Below, one piece after another: positions 5,220 through 42,252 of a stretch of DNA of 64,000 nt. The stretch comes from Candidatus Woesearchaeota archaeon. Lineage in GTDB: Archaea > Nanobdellota > Nanobdellia > UBA10117 > ARS21. Positions within the stretch are counted from its first letter, which is position 1. Each line of letters opens with the position of its first letter. The notes below the pieces were generated by a model. That model worked only from the letters and a program-made list of their open reading frames with translations. It was not told the origin of the DNA and made no database searches. The DNA is taken from positions 113,605-177,604 of the forward strand of contig JAYPKL010000001.1 of assembly GCA_038128845.1 (NCBI GenBank). Direction: 5' to 3'. A program made the position numbers and the translations under genes.

Positions 5220-6324
5220 TAAAGATAAAGTAAGAGCAGAAATAATAGAAAAATTAAGAGTATTAGGTGAAAAATTACAAAAAGAAATTCTTGCAAATCA
5301 AGATCCAGAATTTAATATGCCAATAAGAACATTATCAAATTCCTTCTTTGATGAAAAATCAAAATTAATAAGACTTGGAGATAAAGTTCAAACTAGAAAC
5401 TTTTTCAATGTAGGACAAGCAAGAAAATTTATGCAGACTGCACTAATCGCTTCACAAATCAAGGAATTATTGGAACAAGATAAACCGAGCATCTCTACAA
5501 GACAACTTTATTATATTCTTAAAAGAACTATCGAAGGCTTAAAAGAAAATACTTTCGAAGAGCAAGGAGAGAGTGACCCAATTATAGAAGATATAGAAGT
5601 CACAATCGACGCACTTAGAGAAGATTTAGGATTGGAACCTACTCCGGATGGAGTTTTCTCGGGACCATTACAATATAAAGATTTGAAAACCGGAGATCTA
5701 ATTGATTGTTCTAAGATGGGAACTGCAGGTGCAGCAATTCCTGCAAATACTGAGCCAGGCGTTATGAAATTTGAAAAATGTGATGCAAAATATGTACTAG
5801 TAGTAGAAAAGTTTGCAGTTTGGTCCGTGCTTAATCAACTTAAATACTGGCAAAAAAACAATTGTATTTTATTAACAGGTAAGGGACAAGCAGGAAGGTC
5901 AACAAGAAGATTAGTTGCAAGATTAAATAAAGAATTAAAACTGCCAGTTTATGTTTTTGCAGATTTTGATCCATATGGTTATTATATTTATTCAGTTTAC
6001 AAACAAGGTTCAATAAATTTAGCTTTCTTCTCCGAAAAAGCAGGATGTCCAGAGGCTAAATATATCGGATTGAAGCACGATGATATTGAAAAATTCGATA
6101 TTGCAAAATCTAATTTTATCAAACTAACTGATCAAGATGTTAAACGTCTTAAAGAAGTTAAAAACTATGATTGGTTTAAGAAAAAAGAATGGCAAACTGA
6201 GTTGACTAAAGCAATTAAGTTTGGTTATAAAATTGAATCTGATGCGCTTGTTTCTAAAACAATTGAATTTATGGCAGAAGAATATCTTCCAAAAGTAATT
6301 AAAGAAAAAGATTGGCTAGATTAA
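5212..6324 (+). CDS. top6A: DNA topoisomerase VI subunit A (Spo11 homolog)
   Basis: 370 aa, Toprim/winged-helix Spo11-like (YVLVVEKFAVW, catalytic Tyr region). Operonic with top6B. Confidence 0.9.
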   Translation: MSNKDKVRAEIIEKLRVLGEKLQKEILANQDPEFNMPIRTLSNSFFDEKSKLIRLGDKVQTRNFFNVGQARKFMQTALIASQIKELLEQDKPSISTRQLYYILKRTIEGLKENTFEEQGESDPIIEDIEVTIDALREDLGLEPTPDGVFSGPLQYKDLKTGDLIDCSKMGTAGAAIPANTEPGVMKFEKCDAKYVLVVEKFAVWSVLNQLKYWQKNNCILLTGKGQAGRSTRRLVARLNKELKLPVYVFADFDPYGYYIYSVYKQGSINLAFFSEKAGCPEAKYIGLKHDDIEKFDIAKSNFIKLTDQDVKRLKEVKNYDWFKKKEWQTELTKAIKFGYKIESDALVSKTIEFMAEEYLPKVIKEKDWLD

Positions 6325-6361
6325 CCGGTTAACTTTTTAAAATCTGAAAAATAATATTAAT

Positions 6362-6739
6362 ATGTACACAATTACTGAGTCACTTGCTTTAATTTTTGCA
6401 ATATCTGTTATTGTTAAATTTGCATTTATTTACTCTGGTACAAATACAACAAATGTTTTTCTAAAAAATTCTAAAAAAGTTTATGAAAATTCAATGATAA
6501 GAAATCTTTATTTATTATTGTTCATTGCAACTCTTTATTTATTATTAATGGAAATGACCATTGTTCAATTTACTGCAGCATTTACGGTAGGATTATTATT
6601 GTATGGTCATATGCTTCTACACTTTCCTAAAGAGATACAAAAAATTGCACAAGCATATTTTAAAGATAGAAAAAAATATTTACCAGAATTTTTTATTTAT
6701 TTAATTTTAGCCATTTGGGTTTTGAGAGTTTTATTTTAA
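6362..6739 (+). CDS. small polytopic membrane protein, unknown function
   Basis: 125 aa, 3-4 predicted TM helices, no recognisable motif. Confidence 0.3.
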   Translation: MYTITESLALIFAISVIVKFAFIYSGTNTTNVFLKNSKKVYENSMIRNLYLLLFIATLYLLLMEMTIVQFTAAFTVGLLLYGHMLLHFPKEIQKIAQAYFKDRKKYLPEFFIYLILAIWVLRVLF

Positions 6740-6782
6740 TAACAACACATTAAGTTTTTAATAAATTAATAAGATATATTTT

Positions 6783-7940
6783 ATGAGTGAGATTGCATTG
6801 TCTGTTGCTTTTGTTGGAGTAATCTTACTTATAGGAGTATTTCTTAAATTATTATCTGAAAAAAAAGGATATCCATTAACTTTGTTTTTATTACTTCTGG
6901 GTATAATTGTAGGTCACGTTTTCAAATTTAATCCTGAAGATAGTTTAACGAGCGTAGGTTCATTCGTTACATTAGCACTAGTAATAGTTCTTTTCGATGC
7001 AGGTATGACTATTAATGTTCGTAGATTATACAAAAATATTGCAGCTCCTTTTACTTTTGGAATGATTGCTGTCGGATTAACAATTGCTACTGTGGCAGTT
7101 TTTGCTAAGATGATATTGGGATTAGATTATATATTCGGTTTAATTCTTGGAAGTATTTTGGCATCAACTGATTTGACAATTATTGCACCAATATTTAATT
7201 CTATGAAAGTTAAACCACAAGTTAAAGAATTCATAGAAATTGAATCTTCTATCAATTCAATTTTTGCTGCAGTTTTTGTAGTTGTTTTAATTAATCTTTA
7301 TGAGACGGGTGCAAAACTTGCATTTAATGCAGATATTTTATCCACTGGTTTACAAACTCTTCTTTACAATATTTTTGTTGGAGCAGGTCTTGGATTAGTT
7401 ATAGGATATTTAATATTAAGATTTATTACAAAACTATCTGCGGGACAAATGCCACATTTAGTAATGTTTGGTTCATTATTTTTCACTTATGCAATATCCG
7501 AATTATTGGGAGCATCCGGAATCGCTACTGCTTTGGCAATAGGTATAGTTTTTGGAAATTCAAAAACAACAGTTCCAAGTATAATAAAATCCTTTGGCGG
7601 AGAAATGGAATTAATTTTAGTAACATTTGTTTATTTCTTACTAGGAGCAATAATTGACTTCAATATAATTTATAATTCTTTAATTCCGGCTTTAGTTTTA
7701 ATTTCATTAGTTTATTTATCAAGATATATCTCTGTAAAATATTTTACAAAAGGAATGGAAAAGTTAAGAAAATTCACATTATTAAGTTCACCGAGAGGTA
7801 TAACTTGTGCAGTACTAACTTTAAGTTATTCTTCAATCTTTCCAAATCCTGCATTAATCATAGGTCTTGTATTTTCAGTAATTTTAATAAGTTCACTGTC
7901 AATGTTTTTGATACCAAAATCCTTGCCTAAAAGGTATTAG
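6783..7940 (+). CDS. cation:proton antiporter (Na+/H+ exchanger family)
   Basis: 385 aa, ~11 TM helices, CPA-type composition (ASTDLTIIAPIF, GLGLVIGY). Confidence 0.55.
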   Translation: MSEIALSVAFVGVILLIGVFLKLLSEKKGYPLTLFLLLLGIIVGHVFKFNPEDSLTSVGSFVTLALVIVLFDAGMTINVRRLYKNIAAPFTFGMIAVGLTIATVAVFAKMILGLDYIFGLILGSILASTDLTIIAPIFNSMKVKPQVKEFIEIESSINSIFAAVFVVVLINLYETGAKLAFNADILSTGLQTLLYNIFVGAGLGLVIGYLILRFITKLSAGQMPHLVMFGSLFFTYAISELLGASGIATALAIGIVFGNSKTTVPSIIKSFGGEMELILVTFVYFLLGAIIDFNIIYNSLIPALVLISLVYLSRYISVKYFTKGMEKLRKFTLLSSPRGITCAVLTLSYSSIFPNPALIIGLVFSVILISSLSMFLIPKSLPKRY

Positions 7941-8161: not shown

Positions 8162-9626
<1,465 letters not shown>

Positions 9627-9680
9627 TTTATGAGAGCACTTACGGGTGCTCTCATAGAACTATATATTGGTCATCATAAG

Positions 9681-9753
9681 GGCTTGTAGCTCAATCTGGT
9701 AGAGCGCCTGCTTTGCACGCAGGAGGTTAGGTGTTCAAATCACTTCAAGTCCA
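9681..9753 (+). tRNA. tRNA-Ala (anticodon UGC) in the 16S-23S spacer
   Basis: GGGCTTGTAGCTCAATCTGGTAGAGCGCCTGCTTTGCACGCAGGAGGTTAGGTGTTCAAATCACTTCAAGTCCA. 7-bp acceptor stem, anticodon loop CTTTGCACG. Confidence 0.85.
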
Positions 9754-9799
9754 TCTCAATCGAGAATCATTGCAATCACGATACATTATCGTGGTTAAG

Positions 9800-12675
<2,876 letters not shown>

Positions 12676-13902: not shown

Positions 13903-14640
13903 ATGTGTTATATGAAAAAATTCACATTATTATTTTTATTGCCCTTTTTACTAGTTTCAGTATTTGCAACAAATCACACAATTAACGAAACAATTAACGA
14001 AACAATTAACGAAACAATTAACGAAACAATTAACGAAACAACAGAAGATGACCCAGGAATTACTCCAGATTCATTTTTATGGGGAATCGAACTTGCACTT
14101 GAAAGAATACAACTTGCGTTTACATTTAATGAAGAAAGAAAGGCAGAATTAGCTTTAGAACATGCAACAGAAAGATTATTAGAAGTTCAACAAATGATTA
14201 ATGAAAATAATTTTGATGATGCAGAAAAAGCCCAAATAAGATATAATGATAAAGTATCATCATTAAATTTAGAATTTGAAGGTGCAAGTTCTGAATTTTT
14301 AGATTCAATTTATGAAGAATTTGAATTCAAATCCACCAATATACAAGATAAAATTAGAATTAAAATTGATTCAGAAGATCTTGATGAAGACAACAGAGTA
14401 AGAGCTAAAACAATTATAGAAACTATTGAAGGAGATAAATTAATCAAGATTAAAATTAAAGAAATAGCTGACGAAATTAACATACAAATTAAAGAAAAAT
14501 CATTAAGCGAAGATGATGATCTTCTAGATGATGACGATGACGACAAAAGAAAAGGAAAATCAGAAAAAGACGATGACGATGACAGAAAAGGAAAATCAGA
14601 AAAAGATGACGATGATGATGACGAAGCTTCTGATGACTAA
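13903..14640 (+). CDS. secreted acidic low-complexity protein with (ETIN)x5 repeat and poly-Asp C-terminal repeats
   Basis: Signal peptide MKKFTLLFLLPFLLVSVFA. INETINETINET... . C-terminal DDDDDKRKGKSEKDDDDD x2. Confidence 0.5.
   Translation: MCYMKKFTLLFLLPFLLVSVFATNHTINETINETINETINETINETTEDDPGITPDSFLWGIELALERIQLAFTFNEERKAELALEHATERLLEVQQMINENNFDDAEKAQIRYNDKVSSLNLEFEGASSEFLDSIYEEFEFKSTNIQDKIRIKIDSEDLDEDNRVRAKTIIETIEGDKLIKIKIKEIADEINIQIKEKSLSEDDDLLDDDDDDKRKGKSEKDDDDDRKGKSEKDDDDDDEASDD
13978..14037 (+). repeat. perfect tandem repeat, 12 nt x5 (ACAATTAACGAA), in frame within the CDS
   Basis: Directly visible in sequence. Encodes TINE x5. Confidence 0.9.
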
Positions 14641-24346: not shown

Positions 24347-24874
24347 TTGGTAAAATTAAAATTTAGGAGTATCTTTTGGATACTTCTTATTTTTTTTTCA
24401 ATAAATCATGTTTTTTCTTATTCTTTACTCGGACCTCATGAAACATTCACAGTAATTCCTGAAAAAAAATATTCTGGAGAAATATGTATTGGCGCATTCG
24501 GCGATCAAGATTTATTTAATAGAACTTTTCTATATTCATTTGAAAGTAATGATACTGTATTTGTTAATTTCACAATGGACAAAGAAGTAACATCAGATAA
24601 ACGAGATAAATTTTGTAATTCTTATTATTTTTTTGGCGGAGAGTATACTTCTTCAGTAAGTAAAAGTCCTGCTGCTGCAATATTGGTTTCCGAAAAAGTA
24701 GATAGCGGTATTGTTATGGGATACAAAAGAATCATATATGCGGATACTTCTTCTGTGACTTATCGACACGCACTTATCAATCTTTCAAAAAATTTTATTT
24801 TTGTTTTTGTATCTATATTTTCAGTTTTTGGATTAATATTATATATTTTAAAAAAGAATAAATTTAATGAATAA
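24347..24874 (+). CDS. secreted protein with C-terminal TM anchor
   Basis: N-terminal hydrophobic FWILLIFFSINHVFS. C-terminal helix FIFVFVSIFSVFGLILYIL + KKNK. Confidence 0.4.
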   Translation: MVKLKFRSIFWILLIFFSINHVFSYSLLGPHETFTVIPEKKYSGEICIGAFGDQDLFNRTFLYSFESNDTVFVNFTMDKEVTSDKRDKFCNSYYFFGGEYTSSVSKSPAAAILVSEKVDSGIVMGYKRIIYADTSSVTYRHALINLSKNFIFVFVSIFSVFGLILYILKKNKFNE

Positions 24875-26204
24875 AAATATATTATTAGTATTTTCTTTAA
24901 CAATTGTTTTTTCAATTTTTTTCACATCATCAATTATAACGGGCTTATCAACTTATCAAATCAATTTATCTACAAATATAAATCCAATTTATTGGGAAGA
25001 AGAGATCCCCAATATTATAATTTTTCAAAATTCAAGTAGTTTTATTGTTGATTCAGATTTAAGTAATTCAGGTAACGGGTTTTGTAATTCATATAGCGAT
25101 CAAGACAATACAACATTTACAATATCGGATGAGTCTTCTTCAAAAGTTGATTGTAATATAGATGATGTTAAGTTATCGATTATTCCAAATAGCTCTTTTG
25201 CAGGTAGTACTGTTTGTGAAGTTACTTGTAATGAATTTAATTTTTCTGAATCAATTAATTTCACAATAAATGTTTTAGAAGATTTAGAACCAGAATCTGA
25301 AGTTGTTGTAGTAAGTTCTGGCGGAGGCGGAGGCGGAGGAATATCCCGAGCTCAATTAGCGAATATTCTTGGTCAAAATAATATTTTTAATATTGCCATA
25401 AATCCAGAGTCAATTAAACTTAAGTTACGTCCAGGGGAGACTATAAGTGAAATAATTAGTATTGAAAATAAATTAGATAAAATTTATGATATAAACATTC
25501 AAGAAAACACCTTAGTTTCTTATGTAAACATTAAAAATGAACATAGTTTAGAACCAAAATCTACAATAAAAATTCCAATTGAAATTGGAGTACCATTAAA
25601 TGAGTATAGATCAATTATTACAGGTACAATTGATTTTGATGAATATACGGATCTTGCAGTTGTTATAGAAGTTATAAATCCTTTATTAAATCCCGATTCA
25701 CAGCAAGAAGTTGAATTATTAGTTACTTTAGGAACAGACTATATATCTCCAACTCTAATATTCACAGGAGAAATTGATAAGAAAAATATACTTCCAGGTA
25801 CATTACTTAAGCCTAGGATAAAACTTACTGAGTTTTATCAATCAGGATATCCCGAAATAAGTCTCACTTATTATTTATTTGATATGAATAATAATGAATT
25901 GCTCTCATTTACTGACTATTATAAGACTTATGATGACAGAACTCTGAGCATTTTGTTACCTGAAGATATTCCTTTAGGTGAATATGCTCTCACTTTTGAA
26001 GCAAAATATGGTAATTTTGTTTCTAGGAATACTCAAACACTCCAAATAGTATCAAGTAAAGGTTTACTAACTGATGAATTAATAATCCTCACTTTGATGG
26101 TGGGTGTTATGGCTTATTCCATATATGCAGTATCAACTAGACGAAAACGGGGCGGAAATAAACGAAATAAACAAAAAACTAATGCTAAATTAATTTATCA
26201 TTAA
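24867..26204 (+). CDS. surface protein sharing an N-terminal domain with the giant protein; Gly7 linker; C-terminal TM + basic tail
   Basis: DSDLSNSGNGFCNSYSDQDNTTFTISDESSSKVDCNIDD...STVCEVTCNEF aligns with the giant protein segment DSDLTSSGNGQCTDPDVGQTLIFSVTSENTAQVDCAVSG...ASCTITCDDGNG. SSGGGGGGG linker. TM LIILTLMVGVMAYSIYAV then RRKRGGNKRNKQ. Confidence 0.55.
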   Translation: MNKNILLVFSLTIVFSIFFTSSIITGLSTYQINLSTNINPIYWEEEIPNIIIFQNSSSFIVDSDLSNSGNGFCNSYSDQDNTTFTISDESSSKVDCNIDDVKLSIIPNSSFAGSTVCEVTCNEFNFSESINFTINVLEDLEPESEVVVVSSGGGGGGGISRAQLANILGQNNIFNIAINPESIKLKLRPGETISEIISIENKLDKIYDINIQENTLVSYVNIKNEHSLEPKSTIKIPIEIGVPLNEYRSIITGTIDFDEYTDLAVVIEVINPLLNPDSQQEVELLVTLGTDYISPTLIFTGEIDKKNILPGTLLKPRIKLTEFYQSGYPEISLTYYLFDMNNNELLSFTDYYKTYDDRTLSILLPEDIPLGEYALTFEAKYGNFVSRNTQTLQIVSSKGLLTDELIILTLMVGVMAYSIYAVSTRRKRGGNKRNKQKTNAKLIYH

Positions 26205-26222
26205 ATAAAATTTTTTTTTGTT

Positions 26223-26474
26223 AACTCTCACTTTAGATTTATTATAAAATAATCTAGGCTAATAGTATAATAAGAGTAATTATCTCATTTTTATTCAATA
26301 GATATACTAACTCTTGACAATTTTAATTAATTATATTACTACTAAATATAACTCTCACTTTATTATTACAATCTATACTTGCATAGTTTGATCCAAATAA
26401 GAAGAGATATTTGAATATATTTTACGGTTTTTTTCAAAGATATTTTAACTTTATATTATCTAACTCTCACTTTA
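26223..26474. repeat. three dispersed copies of AACTCTCACTTTA in a 520-bp noncoding region
   Basis: Copies at 26223-26235, 26350-26362 and 26462-26474, each followed by A/T-rich sequence. Confidence 0.7.
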
Positions 26475-26627
26475 AACTTGTTATTTTGTGACTAATTTAG
26501 AGGCACTTTATCTATTATTTACTATTAATTTATATTAAATTTGGATCTATTTTTCTTACTCATTGTTCACTTTTTACGTATTTTTTAAAATTTGGAAATT
26601 TTTAGTAAATATTTTAATAAACTATTG

Positions 26628-26721
26628 TTAAACATATGATAAACACGTGATAAACACTTGATAAACATGTGTTAAACACATTAAACACGTGATAAACACA
26701 TTAAACACGTGATAAACACAT
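26628..26721 (+). promoter_or_regulatory. iteron-like tandem array, ~9 units of TAAACAC(G/A)TG with embedded CACGTG palindromes, ending 4 nt before the ATG at 26726
   Basis: TTAAACATATGA TAAACACGTGA TAAACACTTGA TAAACATGTGT TAAACACAT TAAACACGTGA TAAACACAT TAAACACGTGA TAAACACAT. A 20-mer TAAACACATTAAACACGTGA is repeated. Confidence 0.6.
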
Positions 26722-26725
26722 AAAA

Positions 26726-27241
26726 ATGGTGATAAAAACCGTATTACGGAAAGTATTTAGGAAAAAAACTAAAAAGAACTCTAAAAAAGAAGTAAAAGAT
26801 CACAAAGTTCTAAGTTCTTGGGAAGATATGTATGAAGAATTACAAGAACATCCATTAACTCAAGCCAAAATAATTAATGAAACTTTATTTAAGAACACAA
26901 ATAACGCAATTGAAAAAATAAACATTAGATTAGATGGCATTGATGATAGATTAACAAGACTTGAAAAAAGAAAAGTTAAATCAGGTTCTGAAGAAGTTAT
27001 TGTAGTTAAAGAAGAATCAGATGTTTTAATCAAGCCAATTTTAGATAAAGGAAGATTATCTGATCAAGAAGAATTAATTCTAGAAATGATTAAAGAACAA
27101 GGAGAGGTTGATGCTAAATCAGTTTCCAATAAATTTGATATATCCAGAGGTAATGCAAGCCTTAAATTAAACAAGCTTCATGATTTTGGTTTATTAAGTA
27201 AAAGAATGGATGATAAGACTGTATTTTATTTATTAAAATAA
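26726..27241 (+). CDS. putative DNA-binding protein with C-terminal winged helix-turn-helix
   Basis: Basic N-terminus (KVFRKKTKKNSKK), central coiled coil, C-terminal ELILEMIKEQGEVDAKSVSNKFDISRGNASLKLNKLHDFGLLSKR (wHTH-like). Confidence 0.4.
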   Translation: MVIKTVLRKVFRKKTKKNSKKEVKDHKVLSSWEDMYEELQEHPLTQAKIINETLFKNTNNAIEKINIRLDGIDDRLTRLEKRKVKSGSEEVIVVKEESDVLIKPILDKGRLSDQEELILEMIKEQGEVDAKSVSNKFDISRGNASLKLNKLHDFGLLSKRMDDKTVFYLLK

Positions 27242-27259: not shown

Positions 27260-28060
27260 TTATAATAAATCTAAAGGTGACTTTATTTTCTTTAATTCTT
27301 GGTTTGAAAGATGAGTATATACTTGCGTTGTATTAAGATTAGAATGCCCGAGAAGTGCCTGTATTTTTCTTATATCTGTGCCGTTTTCAAGTAGATGTGT
27401 TGCAAAGCTATGTCTTAAGGTATGTACATGTACATCTTTTTTTATTCCTGCTGCATTTGCACATTCTTTTACTACTTTTTGTATGTATCTTTTTGAAACA
27501 GGTTTATTTTCAAATCTTCCAGGAAAAAGATATCCTTCATGTGCAGCTAATATGGGTTTTAAGTCTTTGATCAAGTCATCTGATAAAATTATCATTCGAT
27601 CTTTCTGCCCTTTACCTTTTCTAACCCATCCAATTTTTTCTTTTATTTCAAAATCATTTGTTGTTATTTTTTGTATCTCCGATAGTCTTAAACCGGATGA
27701 ATACAATAGTTTAATTAATAATTTATGCTTCTTGTCTTTTGCAGAATTAATAAGTGCTCTAACTTCATCTATTTGAAGCACAGAGGGTAGGGTAAAAGGT
27801 ATTTTAGGGGCCTTGATTTTGATGTTTTTACCTAAAACATCTCTGTAATAAAATATTAGTGCAGATCTAACTAATGAAACAGATCTTGCAGAATATTTTT
27901 TTGTAATGAGAGATCCTAGATATTCTTTAAGATCATTTTCTGTTATATTCTTTGGATCTTTATTAATTTCATCAAGAAATTTTTTATTATGACTTAAGTA
28001 TGATTTAATTGTTTCCGGACTAAATCCTCTCATTTTTAGTTCAGATTCTAATCGATACAT
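27260..28060 (-). CDS. XerA/XerCD-family tyrosine recombinase (integrase)
   Basis: C-terminal catalytic signature HTLRHSFATHLLENGTDIRKIQALLGHSNLNTTQVYTHL with upstream R...K residues. N-terminal SAM-like core-binding domain. 266 aa. Confidence 0.8.
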   Translation of the reverse strand: MYRLESELKMRGFSPETIKSYLSHNKKFLDEINKDPKNITENDLKEYLGSLITKKYSARSVSLVRSALIFYYRDVLGKNIKIKAPKIPFTLPSVLQIDEVRALINSAKDKKHKLLIKLLYSSGLRLSEIQKITTNDFEIKEKIGWVRKGKGQKDRMIILSDDLIKDLKPILAAHEGYLFPGRFENKPVSKRYIQKVVKECANAAGIKKDVHVHTLRHSFATHLLENGTDIRKIQALLGHSNLNTTQVYTHLSNQELKKIKSPLDLL

Positions 28061-28154
28061 ATAGTATATTATATTAAATTATTATAAAATTAACGAGTTC
28101 GTATAATATACATTAGACGAACAAACTATATTTTAGCTTTATTTTACATTTTTA

Positions 28155-28331
28155 TTAATTAATTACAATATTGTAAATAAATATATTAAATTTTAATAAT
28201 TTATTATAACTTTTAATACGATATAACTGAATTAAAATTAATCAAAAATTTACAATTATTAATTACAATATTGAAAATAAATAAAGAAAATATTAATTAA
28301 TTACAATATTGAAAATAAATACAAATAAATA
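28155..28331. repeat. three copies of TTAATTACAATATTG(T/A)AAATAAATA; first copy contains the perfect 14-bp palindrome TTACAATATTGTAA
   Basis: Copies start near 28159, 28258 and 28298, in the divergent intergenic region between the recombinase gene and the 28352 ORF. Confidence 0.6.
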
Positions 28332-28351: not shown

Positions 28352-28789
28352 ATGAAAAAACTACAGTCAAAAGATATTCCGTTACAGGAAATAATTTTAC
28401 GTAGGTTTGAATCACCATACGGAATGGATGATAGAGAATTGGCACGTAAATTTTTGCTATCTTTAGGCTTACTTCAGACTGGCGAAAGCAGAGATATTAT
28501 AGTAGACTTATTCTTAATTTTACTAAAATCTAAAAAAAACACATCACCCAAAGACATTAATTTTTTTGTAAATGAATTAAAAGATCTTCCGGGCGGATCT
28601 AAACCAAATTTATTAAGACAAATAAAAAGATTAAGAGATATTAAGTTAGTAGAAAAAGTTCAACAAGGATATAGAATTACAGAGTTTGGAAGATTAGACA
28701 ACATTGTATCAAATTATATAACTCCCTTTATTGTAAACCAAACTATCGAACGAGTTAGAGAATATGCAAAGGAGATTGACAGAAGATGA
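28352..28789 (+). CDS. hypothetical protein (possible helical DNA-binding protein)
   Basis: 145 aa, no TM, no recognisable catalytic motif. 4-nt overlap with the next ORF. Confidence 0.35.
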   Translation: MKKLQSKDIPLQEIILRRFESPYGMDDRELARKFLLSLGLLQTGESRDIIVDLFLILLKSKKNTSPKDINFFVNELKDLPGGSKPNLLRQIKRLRDIKLVEKVQQGYRITEFGRLDNIVSNYITPFIVNQTIERVREYAKEIDRR

Positions 28790-29019: not shown

Positions 29020-29307
29020 TTACATTAATATTTTACCCAAGTCTTCAAAACTATTTGCGACTTGTTCGCCTTTTCCAGTCAATTGAACAATTTTCAATCT
29101 TCCGTTTTTTTCGAATCTAACTAATCCTTCTTGTTCCATTTTTTGTAATAAATGAACCGTATGGGAATAAGTACATCTTGCTTCTTTTGCAAGTAGCGAT
29201 GGGTACTTTGCCGTGTTTTGACGAGTCAAACAAAGCAACAATTCAACGGGCTTATCCCTTAAAAATATATCAAAACTTTTTCCTTTTTTCCACCAAAGAA
29301 GTGCCAT
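29020..29307 (-). CDS. winged-helix transcriptional regulator (ArsR/SmtB-like)
   Basis: LLLCLTRQNTAKYPSLLAKEARCTYSHTVHLLQKMEQEGLVRF: HTH with recognition helix + wing (GRLKIVQLTGKG). Confidence 0.5.
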   Translation of the reverse strand: MALLWWKKGKSFDIFLRDKPVELLLCLTRQNTAKYPSLLAKEARCTYSHTVHLLQKMEQEGLVRFEKNGRLKIVQLTGKGEQVANSFEDLGKILM

Positions 29308-29385: not shown

Positions 29386-29790
29386 TTACTCTTTTGGTAC
29401 AACTTTTGGTAAATGAATCGGAGCAGGTAAGCCCAATGTTTTAGAGATTAAAACTGAATTTGTCATACCTAATTCAAATATTTTTCTTAAAACTGCAACT
29501 GCAACATTATCATCTAATTTTTTATTTTTCTTGTAATTTTTTTCTACTGTTTTTAATGCATCTCCATTACCTGTTATAAATAATGATCCTTCAACATTAA
29601 TGCTAGTATCTTTAGAATATGAAGTTGTATATGTATATTCAACAGATAAACCTAATTTTTTTTCACCTGCAGCAAATAAATCTTTAGTTTTAACAGACTT
29701 AATTTCAGGTTTACTTTCTATTGTACCGATTTTTGACTTGTCACCTCTTTGAGCAACAATTTTTGTAATTTTATCTCCTACGATTATCAT
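29386..29790 (-). CDS. hypothetical protein
   Basis: 134 aa, soluble, no recognised motif. Confidence 0.3.
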   Translation of the reverse strand: MIIVGDKITKIVAQRGDKSKIGTIESKPEIKSVKTKDLFAAGEKKLGLSVEYTYTTSYSKDTSINVEGSLFITGNGDALKTVEKNYKKNKKLDDNVAVAVLRKIFELGMTNSVLISKTLGLPAPIHLPKVVPKE

Positions 29791-29814: not shown

Positions 29815-30990
29815 TTAAATATTATTGTTTTTCATTTTATTTAAATAAAAATAGTAAATTATTACAAAAATAGAAAATATGCCAAAAATAAAAATAAGAT
29901 TTTTATTATTCTCTTTTAGACTTATATCTTTTTCAGAAATACAAACGCCATCATTACAACTATTTAATCGACATTCGTAATCATAATTACATTCAGATCC
30001 TCCAACCTTCTTCGGATAATATTTAAATCCATCACAATAGAATGAAAGATTGTTTTCAAATTTTTCTTCACCTTTTTCACAAAAGGATGAATCAATTTTT
30101 TGTGGAGCTTCACAATCATTATCGTTCATATAGTTACAATTATAACTACAATATCCGTCATTATCTTTACAAATATCATTGTTTGTAAATTGGCATGTTT
30201 TTGGAATCAAGACGCCATCTCCGAAACAAATATCATCAGTAGATATATTAAGATCATTACAATCAATATCCGATATACATTCATTTAGTATATTACAATC
30301 TGAATCCTTGAATTCAAATAATTTTGAATTTTTTGAGCAACCTTCTGGACAACATTCATCCGAACCATCGCATTCAGTAATTTCATTATACTCACATCGC
30401 CCCGAATTTAGATTATCTCCATTACAAGTATCAATCGTACAACTATTTCCATCATCACAATCATTATCAGAATTACAGAAGTTTTTGCAATCATTATCCG
30501 CTCTATCAGAACATTTATTTGGACAATATCCATCATTATCTATACAAGACGTTATTTCTTCATATTTGCAAATATTTTTATCAAGATTACAGGTATCAAG
30601 AGTACTAATATCGCCATCATCACAATCAGAATTTGTTGTACATTGAAATTTATTTAAAATAATTATGTTAAGACTAACATATCTTTCATCAGGAGTATAA
30701 ACTATATCTTCTATTGTTAAATTAACTTCTTGCAACTTCAAAGTTTCATTTATTCTTAATATTTTATTATCTGAATAATCAACTGATACTAAAATTGCTT
30801 CTTCGAATATATTTTTTACCGATATATTTCTTCCATCTAATAAGACACTATCATTTTCATTTAATAGTTCAACTTCTTCAGTTAAAGAAAAAACAATAGG
30901 AAAAATAAATAAAAGAAATAATATTTTTTTCATATTATTATTTTTAATATTCATTAATAATAGCTCCGGCCGGATTTGAACCGGCGTCAT
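29815..30990 (-). CDS. cysteine-rich repeat surface protein (signal peptide, ~50 Cys in repeated CxxDxDCDDGNxCTxDxC modules, C-terminal TM)
   Basis: Signal MKKILFLLFIFPIVFS. Repeated TNSDCDDGDISTLDTCN / SDNDCDDGNSCTIDTCN / SDIDCNDLNISTDDICF modules. C-terminal helix IFIFGIFSIFVIIYYFYL. Confidence 0.5.
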   Translation of the reverse strand: MTPVQIRPELLLMNIKNNNMKKILFLLFIFPIVFSLTEEVELLNENDSVLLDGRNISVKNIFEEAILVSVDYSDNKILRINETLKLQEVNLTIEDIVYTPDERYVSLNIIILNKFQCTTNSDCDDGDISTLDTCNLDKNICKYEEITSCIDNDGYCPNKCSDRADNDCKNFCNSDNDCDDGNSCTIDTCNGDNLNSGRCEYNEITECDGSDECCPEGCSKNSKLFEFKDSDCNILNECISDIDCNDLNISTDDICFGDGVLIPKTCQFTNNDICKDNDGYCSYNCNYMNDNDCEAPQKIDSSFCEKGEEKFENNLSFYCDGFKYYPKKVGGSECNYDYECRLNSCNDGVCISEKDISLKENNKNLIFIFGIFSIFVIIYYFYLNKMKNNNI

Positions 30991-31033
30991 CCGGCCCAGA
31001 ACCGGATATGATTGACCGCTACACTACGGAGCT
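30962..31033 (-). tRNA. tRNA-Gln (anticodon CUG)
   Basis: Reverse complement AGCTCCGTAGTGTAGCGGTCAATCATATCCGGTTCTGGGCCGGATGACGCCGGTTCAAATCCGGCCGGAGCTA. Anticodon loop TTCTGGG. 7-bp acceptor stem. Confidence 0.8.
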
Positions 31034-41981: not shown

Positions 41982-42252
41982 GGGCTAGACAGGCGGGTTA
42001 GGCGCCGTTGTAACTCCATATACCGGAGTGTCGAAGTTCATTGGGAGGCATTGACGGTATGCTATATCCCCAAACAATAATGTCGAAGCGTTGCCTTCCT
42101 TGGCGGTTAATTTTGAGAACCTGGTCAGGCGGGGAACCGAGCAGCCATAATCATGTTTATTCGTGCTTTGAAGTAGTGGCGTGGAGTTATTATTTGGTAA
42201 GATATTTTATTCAAGAAATGTCCACTTTTGAACGTGCCCACTTATTCTAAGT
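41982..42252 (+). ncRNA. ffs: signal recognition particle RNA (7S RNA)
   Basis: GC-rich island. 5' GGGCTAGACAGGCGGG. Helix-8 motif CTGGTCAGGCGGGGAACCGAGCAGCC (consensus GUCAGG-CC-GAAGG-AGCAGCC). 3' end complementary to the 5' end. Confidence 0.7.

Follow-up and report, generated by a model that had tools for sequence, protein, structure and literature searches.

What role does a repeat-rich noncoding gap play when it sits between a surface-protein operon and a convergent pair of genes for a winged-helix protein and a tyrosine recombinase? The question is raised by positions 26205-26725 of a 64-kb stretch (the window, meaning here the whole stretch of DNA analyzed) of contig JAYPKL010000001.1 from a Candidatus Woesearchaeota archaeon. 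The gap harbors (i) a tandem array of TAAACAC units that abuts open reading frame (ORF) 26726-27241, which encodes a 171-aa protein with a winged helix-turn-helix (wHTH) domain, and (ii) dispersed, one-directional boxes with the core CTCACTTT. An initial annotation, made from the letters alone, had proposed either the iteron and Rep organization of a plasmid or viral origin or an autoregulatory operator array. Comparison with orthologous loci favors the second: the array fairly probably serves as a multi-site operator for autoregulation and belongs to a conserved chromosomal hub of repeats linked to dif. This hub, with its boxes, array, wHTH gene, xerA, and dif, is a core-chromosome locus conserved in Woesearchaeota-like DPANN archaea, and we infer that it probably also has an architectural function at the dimer-resolution site.

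The TAAACAC array

The 521-bp gap separates ORF 24867-26204 from ORF 26726-27241 and contains no ORF of at least 30 aa, no Rfam match at gathering or E ≤ 1 thresholds, and no detectable intrinsic terminator. Its GC content is low even for an AT-rich archaeon (26-30% GC), at ~20% over positions -600 to -100 relative to the wHTH gene (500 bp) versus 30% for the window. The possibility that the gap is a relic of extra genes found in L007/L009 was rejected, as tblastn gave no signal.

Both the gap coordinates and the tandem array of the initial annotation hold; the array was described as about nine units from 26628, and units delimited by eye number ten and start at 26618 (Table 1). Tandem Repeats Finder reports a period of 11 with 8.8 copies at 26629-26721 and a second array with a period of 20 at 26640-26736 (score 127). 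The last unit is followed by AAAA and then by the ATG at 26726, and this 4-nt distance, the duplicated 20-mer (26682-26701 equals 26702-26721), and the CACGTG palindromes, of which the array has three, are all present as first reported. AACAC is the reverse complement of GTGTT, which turns the array into a run of dyads that overlap one another (GTGTT-A-AACAC and AACAC-GTGTT) and appear as GTGTTAAACAC and CACGTG elements. Exact TAAACAC occurs nine times in the window, with 7 of the 9 copies inside the array. The array itself is found only once in the 64 kb; a search of the window for the same repeats leaves both it and the AACTCTCACTTTA form of the boxes confined to the gap. The initial annotation was also right to set CRISPR (clustered regularly interspaced short palindromic repeats) aside: the units measure 9-11 bp and run head to tail with no spacers, whereas CRISPR repeats are 24-48 bp with spacers of similar length.

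The comparison set consists of the contigs of the gene and of its orthologs at 35-98% protein identity; 20 loci, spanning 35-100% identity, include upstream sequence. TAAAC/GTTTA half-sites stand in the last 60-150 bp before the ATG in all 20. Each locus has 4-11 half-sites, except for L019, whose degenerate array retains one. Half-site density is 43.2 per kb before the ATG versus 3.6 per kb elsewhere, a ~12-fold enrichment, and the spacing of same-strand half-sites peaks at 11 bp (27 cases), with 9-10 bp in 17 cases. Close relatives have direct repeats, as does the window; distant orthologs mix direct and inverted half-sites, including perfect GTGTTTAAACAC palindromes. Orientation and spacing vary freely across lineages, while the 7-mer itself is kept.

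Distant orthologs carry an unmistakable TATA box, TTTATATAT, just 5′ of the first half-site, and nearer ones have TAGCAAGGTTTTTATT there, so the sites fill the interval from the promoter element to the start codon. The place of the TATA box in the window is occupied by TAGTAAATATTTTAAT. A putative B recognition element (BRE)/TATA-like element is assigned here by its positional match to TAGCAAGGTTTTTATT in L009/L015/L017/L018 and to TTTATATAT in the distant orthologs.

Some loci have an extra TTAAACAC/GTGTTTAA site just 3′ of the wHTH stop codon, in the short gap before the convergent xerA. Counted from the gene start, it lies at +527 to +531 in L007/L014, +504 in L015, +501 in L017, +556 in L022, and +450 in L033; the window has no such site.

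The adjacent winged-helix protein

AlphaFold2 (24-sequence alignment, mean predicted local distance difference test (pLDDT) score of 80) models the 171-aa protein with two long helices (residues 2-40 and 43-87), a disordered linker (88-105), and a C-terminal winged helix (113-170, pLDDT >90). Foldseek matches it to MarR/ArsR-type repressors and to the pNOB8 centromere-binding protein AspA (E ~1e-4), and the two methods agree on the C-terminal wHTH that had been called from the translation. Profile scores are 16.5 bits for Pfam MarR (cut-off 24.6) and 24.9 for NCBIfam ArsR/SmtB (cut-off 55); the modeled fold is nevertheless of the MarR/ArsR type. No ligand-binding or metal-site features were found in the protein, and its architecture comprises one winged helix, with neither a Rep-like or AAA+ domain nor a second winged helix.

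The invariant segments of the family are an N-terminal HPLTQAK and the recognition helix ISR.N.SLKLNKL, which reads ISRGNASLKLNKL in the window protein. The latter, as ISR(S/G)N(A/S)(S/A)LK(L/M)(N/S)(K/R)L, is the best-conserved segment of all and is near-identical, with conservative changes only, in 20 of 20 loci. An indexed search yields 33 family members, and an exhaustive profile search of 1.84 billion representatives yields 310 at E ≤ 1e-3 and 17 at E ≤ 1e-30. The family is confined to Woesearchaeota-like DPANN archaea and has no relatives in plasmid, phage, or IMG/VR collections; an IMG/VR scan with the array sequence was likewise empty.

A predicted multi-site operator

The autoregulatory alternative of the initial annotation is strengthened by two features of the orthologs: the half-sites keep their position between the TATA-like box and the ATG in every one examined, and the recognition helix is the part of the protein that is best conserved. 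From these we infer that the TAAACAC array probably serves as a multi-site operator for the product of the abutting gene. The N-terminal coiled coil or helical hairpin of the protein presumably oligomerizes and is joined by a flexible linker to the winged helix, one of which would read each 7-bp half-site. A spacing of one helical turn (11, 10, or 9 bp) would place all half-sites on one face of the DNA, which would permit cooperative binding as an extended oligomer. The array spans the ~105 bp between the TATA-like box and the start codon. Its occupation would therefore mask both the transcription start and the early transcribed region and would thereby repress the gene's own transcription. 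The lineage-variable arrangement of half-sites fits winged helices on flexible tethers, given the disorder predicted for residues 88-105.

Several observations weigh against this reading. Ten sites are far beyond the need of simple autorepression, and the post-stop site of some loci is not explained by autoregulation. The 171-aa protein scores below the MarR and ArsR cut-offs, and the promoter position in the window is assigned by comparison in very AT-rich DNA. The recognition helix and the half-site are both essentially invariant and thus show no covariation that could support the proposed specificity. Finally, the right arm of dif and the TAAACAC half-site have TTAAAC in common, so XerA, too, may bind at the array.

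One-directional boxes upstream of the array

The three dispersed AACTCTCACTTTA copies described initially, at spacings of 127 and 112 bp, are confirmed, and two further CTCACTTT cores inside the upstream gene had been missed. Exactly three copies of AACTCTCACTTTA occur in the window, all in the gap and on the + strand; the chance expectation is 0.23, and three copies were reached in 0 of 100 shuffles. The core CTCACTTT occurs five times forward and never in reverse in the 64 kb, always within 740 bp of the wHTH gene. Strain variants L001/L003 retain the boxes although the left half of their gap has diverged beyond easy alignment.

A de novo count of 8-mers over 19 non-redundant loci, taken from -1500 to -100 relative to the wHTH gene, puts CTCACTTT well ahead of all others: this upstream interval (25.6 kb) has 73 forward copies, spread over 19 of 19 loci, and no reverse-strand copy, against 9 copies in the remaining 110 kb. 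Box density is highest at -500 to -250 (6.4 per kb) and falls to background by -1500, and neighboring boxes are never <58 bp apart, with a median spacing of 143 bp. They always lie on the strand of the wHTH gene, whether over noncoding DNA (the window and L024-L034), over + strand ORFs in three frames, or over - strand ORFs of unrelated genes, including that of the pyruvate:ferredoxin oxidoreductase alpha subunit. This pattern reflects selection that acts on the DNA, is polar, and is anchored to the wHTH gene. The boxes form a second, strictly one-directional class of cis-element, probably bound by another, highly conserved factor. They, rather than the array, have the wider conservation and are the more unusual of the two elements.

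Four irregularly spaced CTCACTTT boxes also occur at 1579-1887 of L058, a contig of 48% GC, where they adjoin the gene (196-1278, - strand) of a 360-aa AAA+ ATPase that ends in a winged helix, an arrangement suggesting that the boxes occur in still other contexts and lineages.

The xerA-dif neighborhood

The convergent gene next to the wHTH gene does encode a tyrosine recombinase, as first noted; its product matches Pfam Phage_integrase (5e-43) and the XerA equivalog NF040815 of NCBIfam (242.7 bits versus a cut-off of 220). A dif site is defined as a 28-bp element with two 11-bp imperfect inverted repeats, a 6-bp spacer, and ATAA/TTA inner arms (PMC2958812, PMC8371274). A scan for 11-6-11 inverted repeats returns a single copy in the window (Table 1), which fits this bacterial/archaeal form and is shared by 11 other loci. 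Sequence is sufficient for this comparison in 17 loci: 12 have a dif-like site, located 0.9-2.6 kb downstream from the start of the wHTH gene, and in 5 none was detected; L024/L012, L025, L031, and L034 have the site without an adjacent xer gene. The order boxes, array, wHTH gene, (xerA), dif is therefore conserved. The one complete chromosome with the locus, CP070803.1 (L033, 919.5 kb), has it at 446.7-455.1 kb, ~49% of the record, which is at most suggestive of a position opposite the record start. A masked N run at 5477-5553 of this locus, ~240 bp upstream of the xer gene, covers the expected place of dif, so its absence there cannot be judged.

The gene order is (i) the surface-protein operon, (ii) the gap, (iii) the wHTH gene, (iv) the convergent recombinase gene, (v) the 145-aa gene, (vi) the 95-aa wHTH gene, (vii) the 134-aa gene, (viii) a gene for a Cys-rich secreted protein, (ix) DUF212, (x) DUF424, and (xi) eIF2-beta. 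It is kept in relatives at 50-62% identity, and parts of it are kept at 35-40%; across the relatives compared, order around the locus is conserved at 40-60% protein identity. The relatives of the locus genes are found only in metagenome-assembled genomes of Woesearchaeota, Pacearchaeota, Nanoarchaeota, and Nanoarchaeia, that is, in DPANN archaea.

The 95-aa protein is 89-97% identical where the 171-aa protein is 51-62% and the neighbors are 51-68% identical; this unusually strong constraint makes it a candidate binder of the invariant CTCACTTT boxes. The repeats in the divergent gap between xerA and ORF 28352 are probably an operator set for another small winged-helix protein; related TTTTCAATATTGTAAATAAA sites occur near the locus in L007, L009, L015, L021, and L028. 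The model of the 134-aa protein (pLDDT 85) has a four-stranded sheet and two helices with weak similarity to SecB-like chaperones (E 2e-3, template modeling score ~0.47), a predicted fold that is uninformative as to a function on DNA. The Cys-rich protein probably starts at an internal Met before its signal peptide (MKKILFLLF...).

Table 1. Features of the locus (positions in the window; for the array units, the first position is given)
Feature	Position	Strand	Remarks
Box core CTCACTTT	25989..25996	+	within coding sequence of ORF 24867-26204, codons A-L-T-F
Box core CTCACTTT	26088..26095	+	C-terminal membrane-anchor codons of ORF 24867-26204, I-L-T-L
Box 1 AACTCTCACTTTA	26223..26235	+	
Box 2 AACTCTCACTTTA	26350..26362	+	
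Box 3 AACTCTCACTTTA	26462..26474	+	
Putative BRE/TATA-like element TAGTAAATATTTTAA	26603..26617	+	directly 5′ of first unit; assigned by position
TAAACAC array	26618..26721	+	ten half-site units, 11- or 9-bp period; ends 4 nt before ATG
Unit 1 TAAACTATTGT	26618		
Unit 2 TAAACATATGA	26629		
Unit 3 TAAACACGTGA	26640		
Unit 4 TAAACACTTGA	26651		
Unit 5 TAAACATGTGT	26662		
Unit 6 TAAACACAT	26673		
Unit 7 TAAACACGTGA	26682		
Unit 8 TAAACACAT	26693		
Unit 9 TAAACACGTGA	26702		
Unit 10 TAAACACAT	26713		
wHTH gene	26726..27241	+	171-aa DPANN-specific protein, basic N-terminus
xerA	27260..28060	-	chromosomal tyrosine recombinase, convergent with wHTH gene
dif-like site AGTTCGTATAA-TATACA-TTAGACGAACA	28096..28123	+	11-6-11; 36 bp upstream of xerA
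Repeat set ATTAATTACAATATTG(T/A)AAATAAATA	28144..28328	.	three copies, palindromic core TTACAATATTGTAA, divergent xerA/ORF 28352 gap
145-aa winged-helix-like protein	28352..28789	+	weak PF25213 match; synteny; conserved neighbor
95-aa winged-helix protein	29020..29307	-	
134-aa conserved neighbor	29386-29790	-	
Cys-rich secreted protein ORF	29815-30990	-	longest ORF overlaps tRNA-Gln by 30 nt
tRNA-Gln	30961-31033	-	

Further afield, the window contains an archaeal-type ribosomal RNA operon (8162-12665), RNase P RNA, four tRNAs, and core informational genes (Topo VI, eIF1A, eIF2-beta, RPA, MCM, TBP, both RFC subunits, FtsZ, Spt5, L1/L10, HerA, and Kae1). The sole match to a signal recognition particle (SRP) RNA lies at 42090-42186 (+), within a 345-bp gap; the model matched is that of the bacterial small SRP (43.2 bits versus a gathering threshold of 40), and the actual RNA may extend further or be reduced to an unusual degree. 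A 12-bp unit, ACAATTAACGAA, is perfectly repeated in tandem (× 5.3) at 13978-14041, within ORF 13903-14640 and just downstream of the RNase P RNA.

Boxes in a sister clade

A metagenome scan for paired boxes (CTCTCACTTT N{90,120} CTCTCACTTT) was aimed at an unbiased association test. Its matches were swamped by unrelated tandem repeats of regular period, so the association of boxes with the gene is not measurable from it; among the matches listed, 0 of 80 loci encode the 171-aa family. The scan did expose loci of a sister clade. The Pacearchaeota-like loci L046, L065, L088, L089/L076, and L092, among the matches listed, have 3-4 CTCACTTT boxes between two convergent genes; the product of each gene starts with a coiled coil, continues with a Q/T-rich linker, and ends in a winged helix. 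The boxes are therefore older and more widespread than the 171-aa family. One of the two products, a 211-aa protein, has 2334 homologs; a profile-profile test of the 171-aa against the 211-aa family gave a probability of 0.3%, so homology is not demonstrable. The only neighbor with detected homology across both clades is the 134-aa protein, with a homolog in L092; other sister-clade loci have positional counterparts of its gene.

The linker-coding DNA of the sister clade and the upstream gap hold TGTTTGAACA and CTGTTTAAACAG arrays. At 5480-5560 of L089, and also in L065 and L088, the linker peptides (AVQTGVQTGVQT and similar) are encoded by TGTTTGAACA arrays. As the Q/T-rich linkers are encoded by this putative motif, arrays of binding sites are predicted inside the coding sequence of the binder itself. 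L089 also has five one-directional AGCTAACCTAAGT copies at 6107-7295, between its TTTAAAC-type array and a dif-like site at 7357; AGCTAACCTAAGT is another polar repeat class in this lineage.

In L089/L076 and L155-L157, the distance from the boxes and the analogous coiled-coil/wHTH genes to a canonical oriC is 2-3 kb. Toward oriC, L155-L157 have the 211-aa gene, the boxes, a 235-286-aa gene, a small wHTH gene, a homolog of the 134-aa gene, and a PRC-barrel gene, followed by an AT-rich canonical oriC with origin recognition box (ORB) elements and then by orc1 and PolD. This oriC comprises two ORBs, an AT-rich unwinding region, and orc1 with the PolD genes. A full canonical ORB (e.g., ACCCCTCTATTTCCTGTGGAAAG) also lies inside the 235-286-aa coiled-coil/wHTH gene and is translated there as a conserved peptide, STGNRGV (L089 4460-4474, L155 11300, L156 11213, L157 11157, L046 1338, and L092 6419). 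This ORB is ~2 kb away from the oriC beside orc1 and has the opposite orientation to the two ORBs of that oriC, and the gene that contains it has weak HTH_36 and DnaD_N matches. On the other side of the 211-aa gene, L155 has a dif-like site ~1.7 kb upstream, and L157 has an Xer-type integrase gene ~2.3 kb upstream. The sister-clade boxes thus lie between oriC and dif.

Alternative roles of the locus

An insertion at 26.2-29.3 kb, in the form of an integrated mobile element with its integrase, regulators, and att repeats, is suggested by the tyrosine recombinase flanked by small winged-helix genes and repeat-rich gaps and by the nearby tRNA-Gln. It has almost no credibility: the same order and flanking core genes (eIF2-beta, DUF424, DUF212, and the surface-protein operon) recur in relatives down to ~50% identity, the recombinase is a XerA equivalog with a dif site, viral and plasmid homologs are absent, and no att-type direct repeat was found between tRNA-Gln and the gap. 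With the segment present in all relatives, the mobile element is effectively refuted. Repeats that act at the RNA level, as a structured 5′ untranslated region or as small RNAs, are hardly more credible. The array is probably within the 5′ untranslated region, and the inverted half-sites of distant orthologs could form hairpins, but the array of the window folds no better than its shuffles (z = -1.14) and has no Rfam match, half-site orientation and spacing vary while the 7-mer is kept, and the boxes lie upstream of the promoter and antisense to unrelated genes. A replication origin, either chromosomal or anciently captured from a plasmid-like replicon, has a better but still slim chance. On this view, the units would correspond to iterons, the wHTH protein to an initiator or an origin-binding accessory, and the boxes to further sites of origin proteins. 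The sister clade has the same boxes and analogous genes 2-3 kb from a canonical oriC and a third, intragenic ORB; the gap is the most AT-rich stretch of its neighborhood; MCM, RPA, and RFC genes lie 5-15 kb away; and the median box spacing of 143 bp is near the size of archaeal Okazaki fragments. However, ORBs (a TCCA..GGAAA core, typically inverted around an AT-rich unwinding element) are readily seen in the sister-clade loci, and no ORB-like element was found near any of the 24 loci with the wHTH family; in the window, the search returned one loose core match, ~7 kb upstream of the gene. No window protein covered by the Pfam scan has a Cdc6/ORC domain (orc1/cdc6). The repeats are unidirectional rather than inverted around an unwinding element, the array occupies the promoter-to-ATG interval, and the protein has a single winged helix with no Rep-like or AAA+ domain. 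Together with the core synteny, XerA/dif, and the lack of plasmid, phage, or IMG/VR relatives, these points speak against the iteron and Rep organization of the initial annotation. The GC-skew check that it recommended gives a cumulative maximum at ~28 kb, which mirrors gene orientation and merely tracks the switch from + to - genes. Skew at third codon positions (GC3 skew) on the coding strand is -0.063 for the left + genes, -0.017 for the right + genes, and +0.162 for the right - genes (57 genes, p ~0.1), which fits one replichore over the window better than a switch and is weak evidence against both an origin and a terminus here.

More serious, though still unlikely, is the idea that the locus is chiefly an architectural device associated with dif and not mainly a regulator, in which boxes and array would assemble a polar nucleoprotein complex that controls events at dif. 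Such a complex could be (i) an Xer accessory or directionality element that replaces FtsK, (ii) a roadblock for SMC complexes or a domain boundary, or (iii) a fork barrier that fixes termination by dif. In its favor, a dif-like site follows in 12 of 17 loci, some of which have no adjacent xer; the boxes all point 5′ to 3′ toward array and dif; the genes of the window converge on the locus; and L089/L155 repeat the order of boxes, TTTAAAC-type arrays, and dif around a protein whose homology is not demonstrable. Precedents are the RTP-Ter arrangement of B. subtilis and, in T. kodakarensis, the SMC boundary that TrmBL2 sets in a long dif gap (PMC11840125). Archaea lack FtsK, with control of dimer resolution an open question (PMC8371274). 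The points on the other side are that two genes and ~1.4 kb separate the array from dif, no dif is within reach in five loci, an opposed box cluster beyond dif was not found, GC3 skew suggests no strand switch at the locus, and the TATA-to-ATG position is more simply explained by autoregulation. The operator and the architectural roles are not mutually exclusive. The most ambitious form, in which boxes and phased array are a new polar nucleoprotein device that marks the dimer-resolution region in DPANN archaea, is a shade more doubtful again. Such a device may block or guide replication forks, SMC complexes, or a translocase, or it may be an Xer accessory that gives XerA-dif directionality without FtsK. 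Placed between oriC and dif, as in the sister clade, it may render replication effectively unidirectional and let it end beside the origin.

Comparison with known systems

The predicted multi-site operator resembles those of MarR/ArsR autorepressors, which have the closest folds by Foldseek, a winged helix, and dyad sites (here GTGTTAAACAC and CACGTG) between the promoter element and their own start codon. Unlike in those repressors, the winged helix here forms the C-terminus and follows a long coiled-coil hairpin and a disordered linker, and there are ten phased half-sites versus one or two dyads. Plasmid centromeres provide a second parallel. ParR-parC of R1 has ten 11-bp repeats, TubR-tubC has 12-bp repeats and a winged-helix binder, and AspA is the centromere-binding protein of pNOB8. 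Common to these and to the locus are head-to-tail arrays of 11-12 bp directly upstream of the gene of the binder (here a predicted one). At plasmid centromeres one DNA face is coated cooperatively and autoregulation is a by-product, a likeness that is predicted here. Unlike them, the locus is chromosomal and core, and the wHTH gene stands alone and convergent with xerA; no gene for a partition NTPase (ParA, ParM, or TubZ) was found in the operon or nearby in any locus, and FtsZ is 20 kb away. Iteron/Rep systems and archaeal oriC share a repeat-rich, AT-rich gap beside a winged-helix gene and, in the sister clade, boxes beside oriC. Iterons are direct repeats of ~17-22 bp bound by the adjacent initiator, whereas the units here are 9-11 bp with a 7-bp core and are inverted as well in orthologs. 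Rep-type initiators have two winged helices or a nuclease/helicase domain; the protein here has one winged helix with no second one or AAA+ domain, and no replicon-type relatives. One loose core match apart, no ORB was found in the window, nor was orc1 among the proteins scanned.

For the proposed architectural role, the nearest bacterial systems are polar fork barriers and Xer accessory sequences. RTP-Ter of B. subtilis and Tus-Ter of E. coli are such barriers, and RTP is a small winged-helix protein whose gene lies beside its own autoregulating polar sites. The locus is similar in having polar sites beside a winged-helix gene in the dif-holding region of the chromosome but shows no homology, no opposed second set of sites, and apparently no skew switch. 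Specific termination sites are not known in archaea. The accessory sequences of cer/psi (bound by PepA and ArgR/ArcA) abut the Xer core site within ~200 bp, and KOPS (FtsK-orienting polar sequences) are genome-wide, mirrored on both sides of dif, and act with FtsK. Both systems share with the locus one-sided or polar elements near an Xer core site and impose directionality on recombination there, which would be of relevance in archaea, as these have no FtsK; here, the gap to dif is ~1.4-2 kb, and the cluster is single, local, and one-sided.

How archaea control dimer resolution without FtsK and whether they have defined termination or boundary elements are both unresolved (PMC8371274, PMC11840125). 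The locus offers a sequence-defined handle on these questions, comprising (i) a small protein family with an essentially invariant recognition helix, (ii) a phased array of likely sites, (iii) a strictly polar 8-mer kept by selection even within unrelated coding sequences on either strand, and (iv) dif beside xerA, and all four recur together in uncultivated DPANN lineages with reduced genomes. On the conservative reading alone, the outcome would be a new DNA-binding family with its likely target and a correction to the tempting label of integrase plus regulators as a mobile element. If the architectural one is true, this would be the first specific cis-acting chromosome-organizing or termination-type element described in archaea. 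An archaeal counterpart is found in T. kodakarensis, in which TrmBL2, a winged-helix filament protein, sets an SMC boundary at the long dif-containing gap between convergent genes (PMC11840125). The two loci share a long gap at convergent genes and a winged-helix protein proposed to coat DNA. TrmBL2 differs in being an abundant nucleoid protein of low sequence specificity and another architecture, with no specific repeat motifs reported (PMC11840125). A dif site next to the xerA operon has been described for haloarchaea (PMC11840125), and the dif of the window likewise adjoins xerA.

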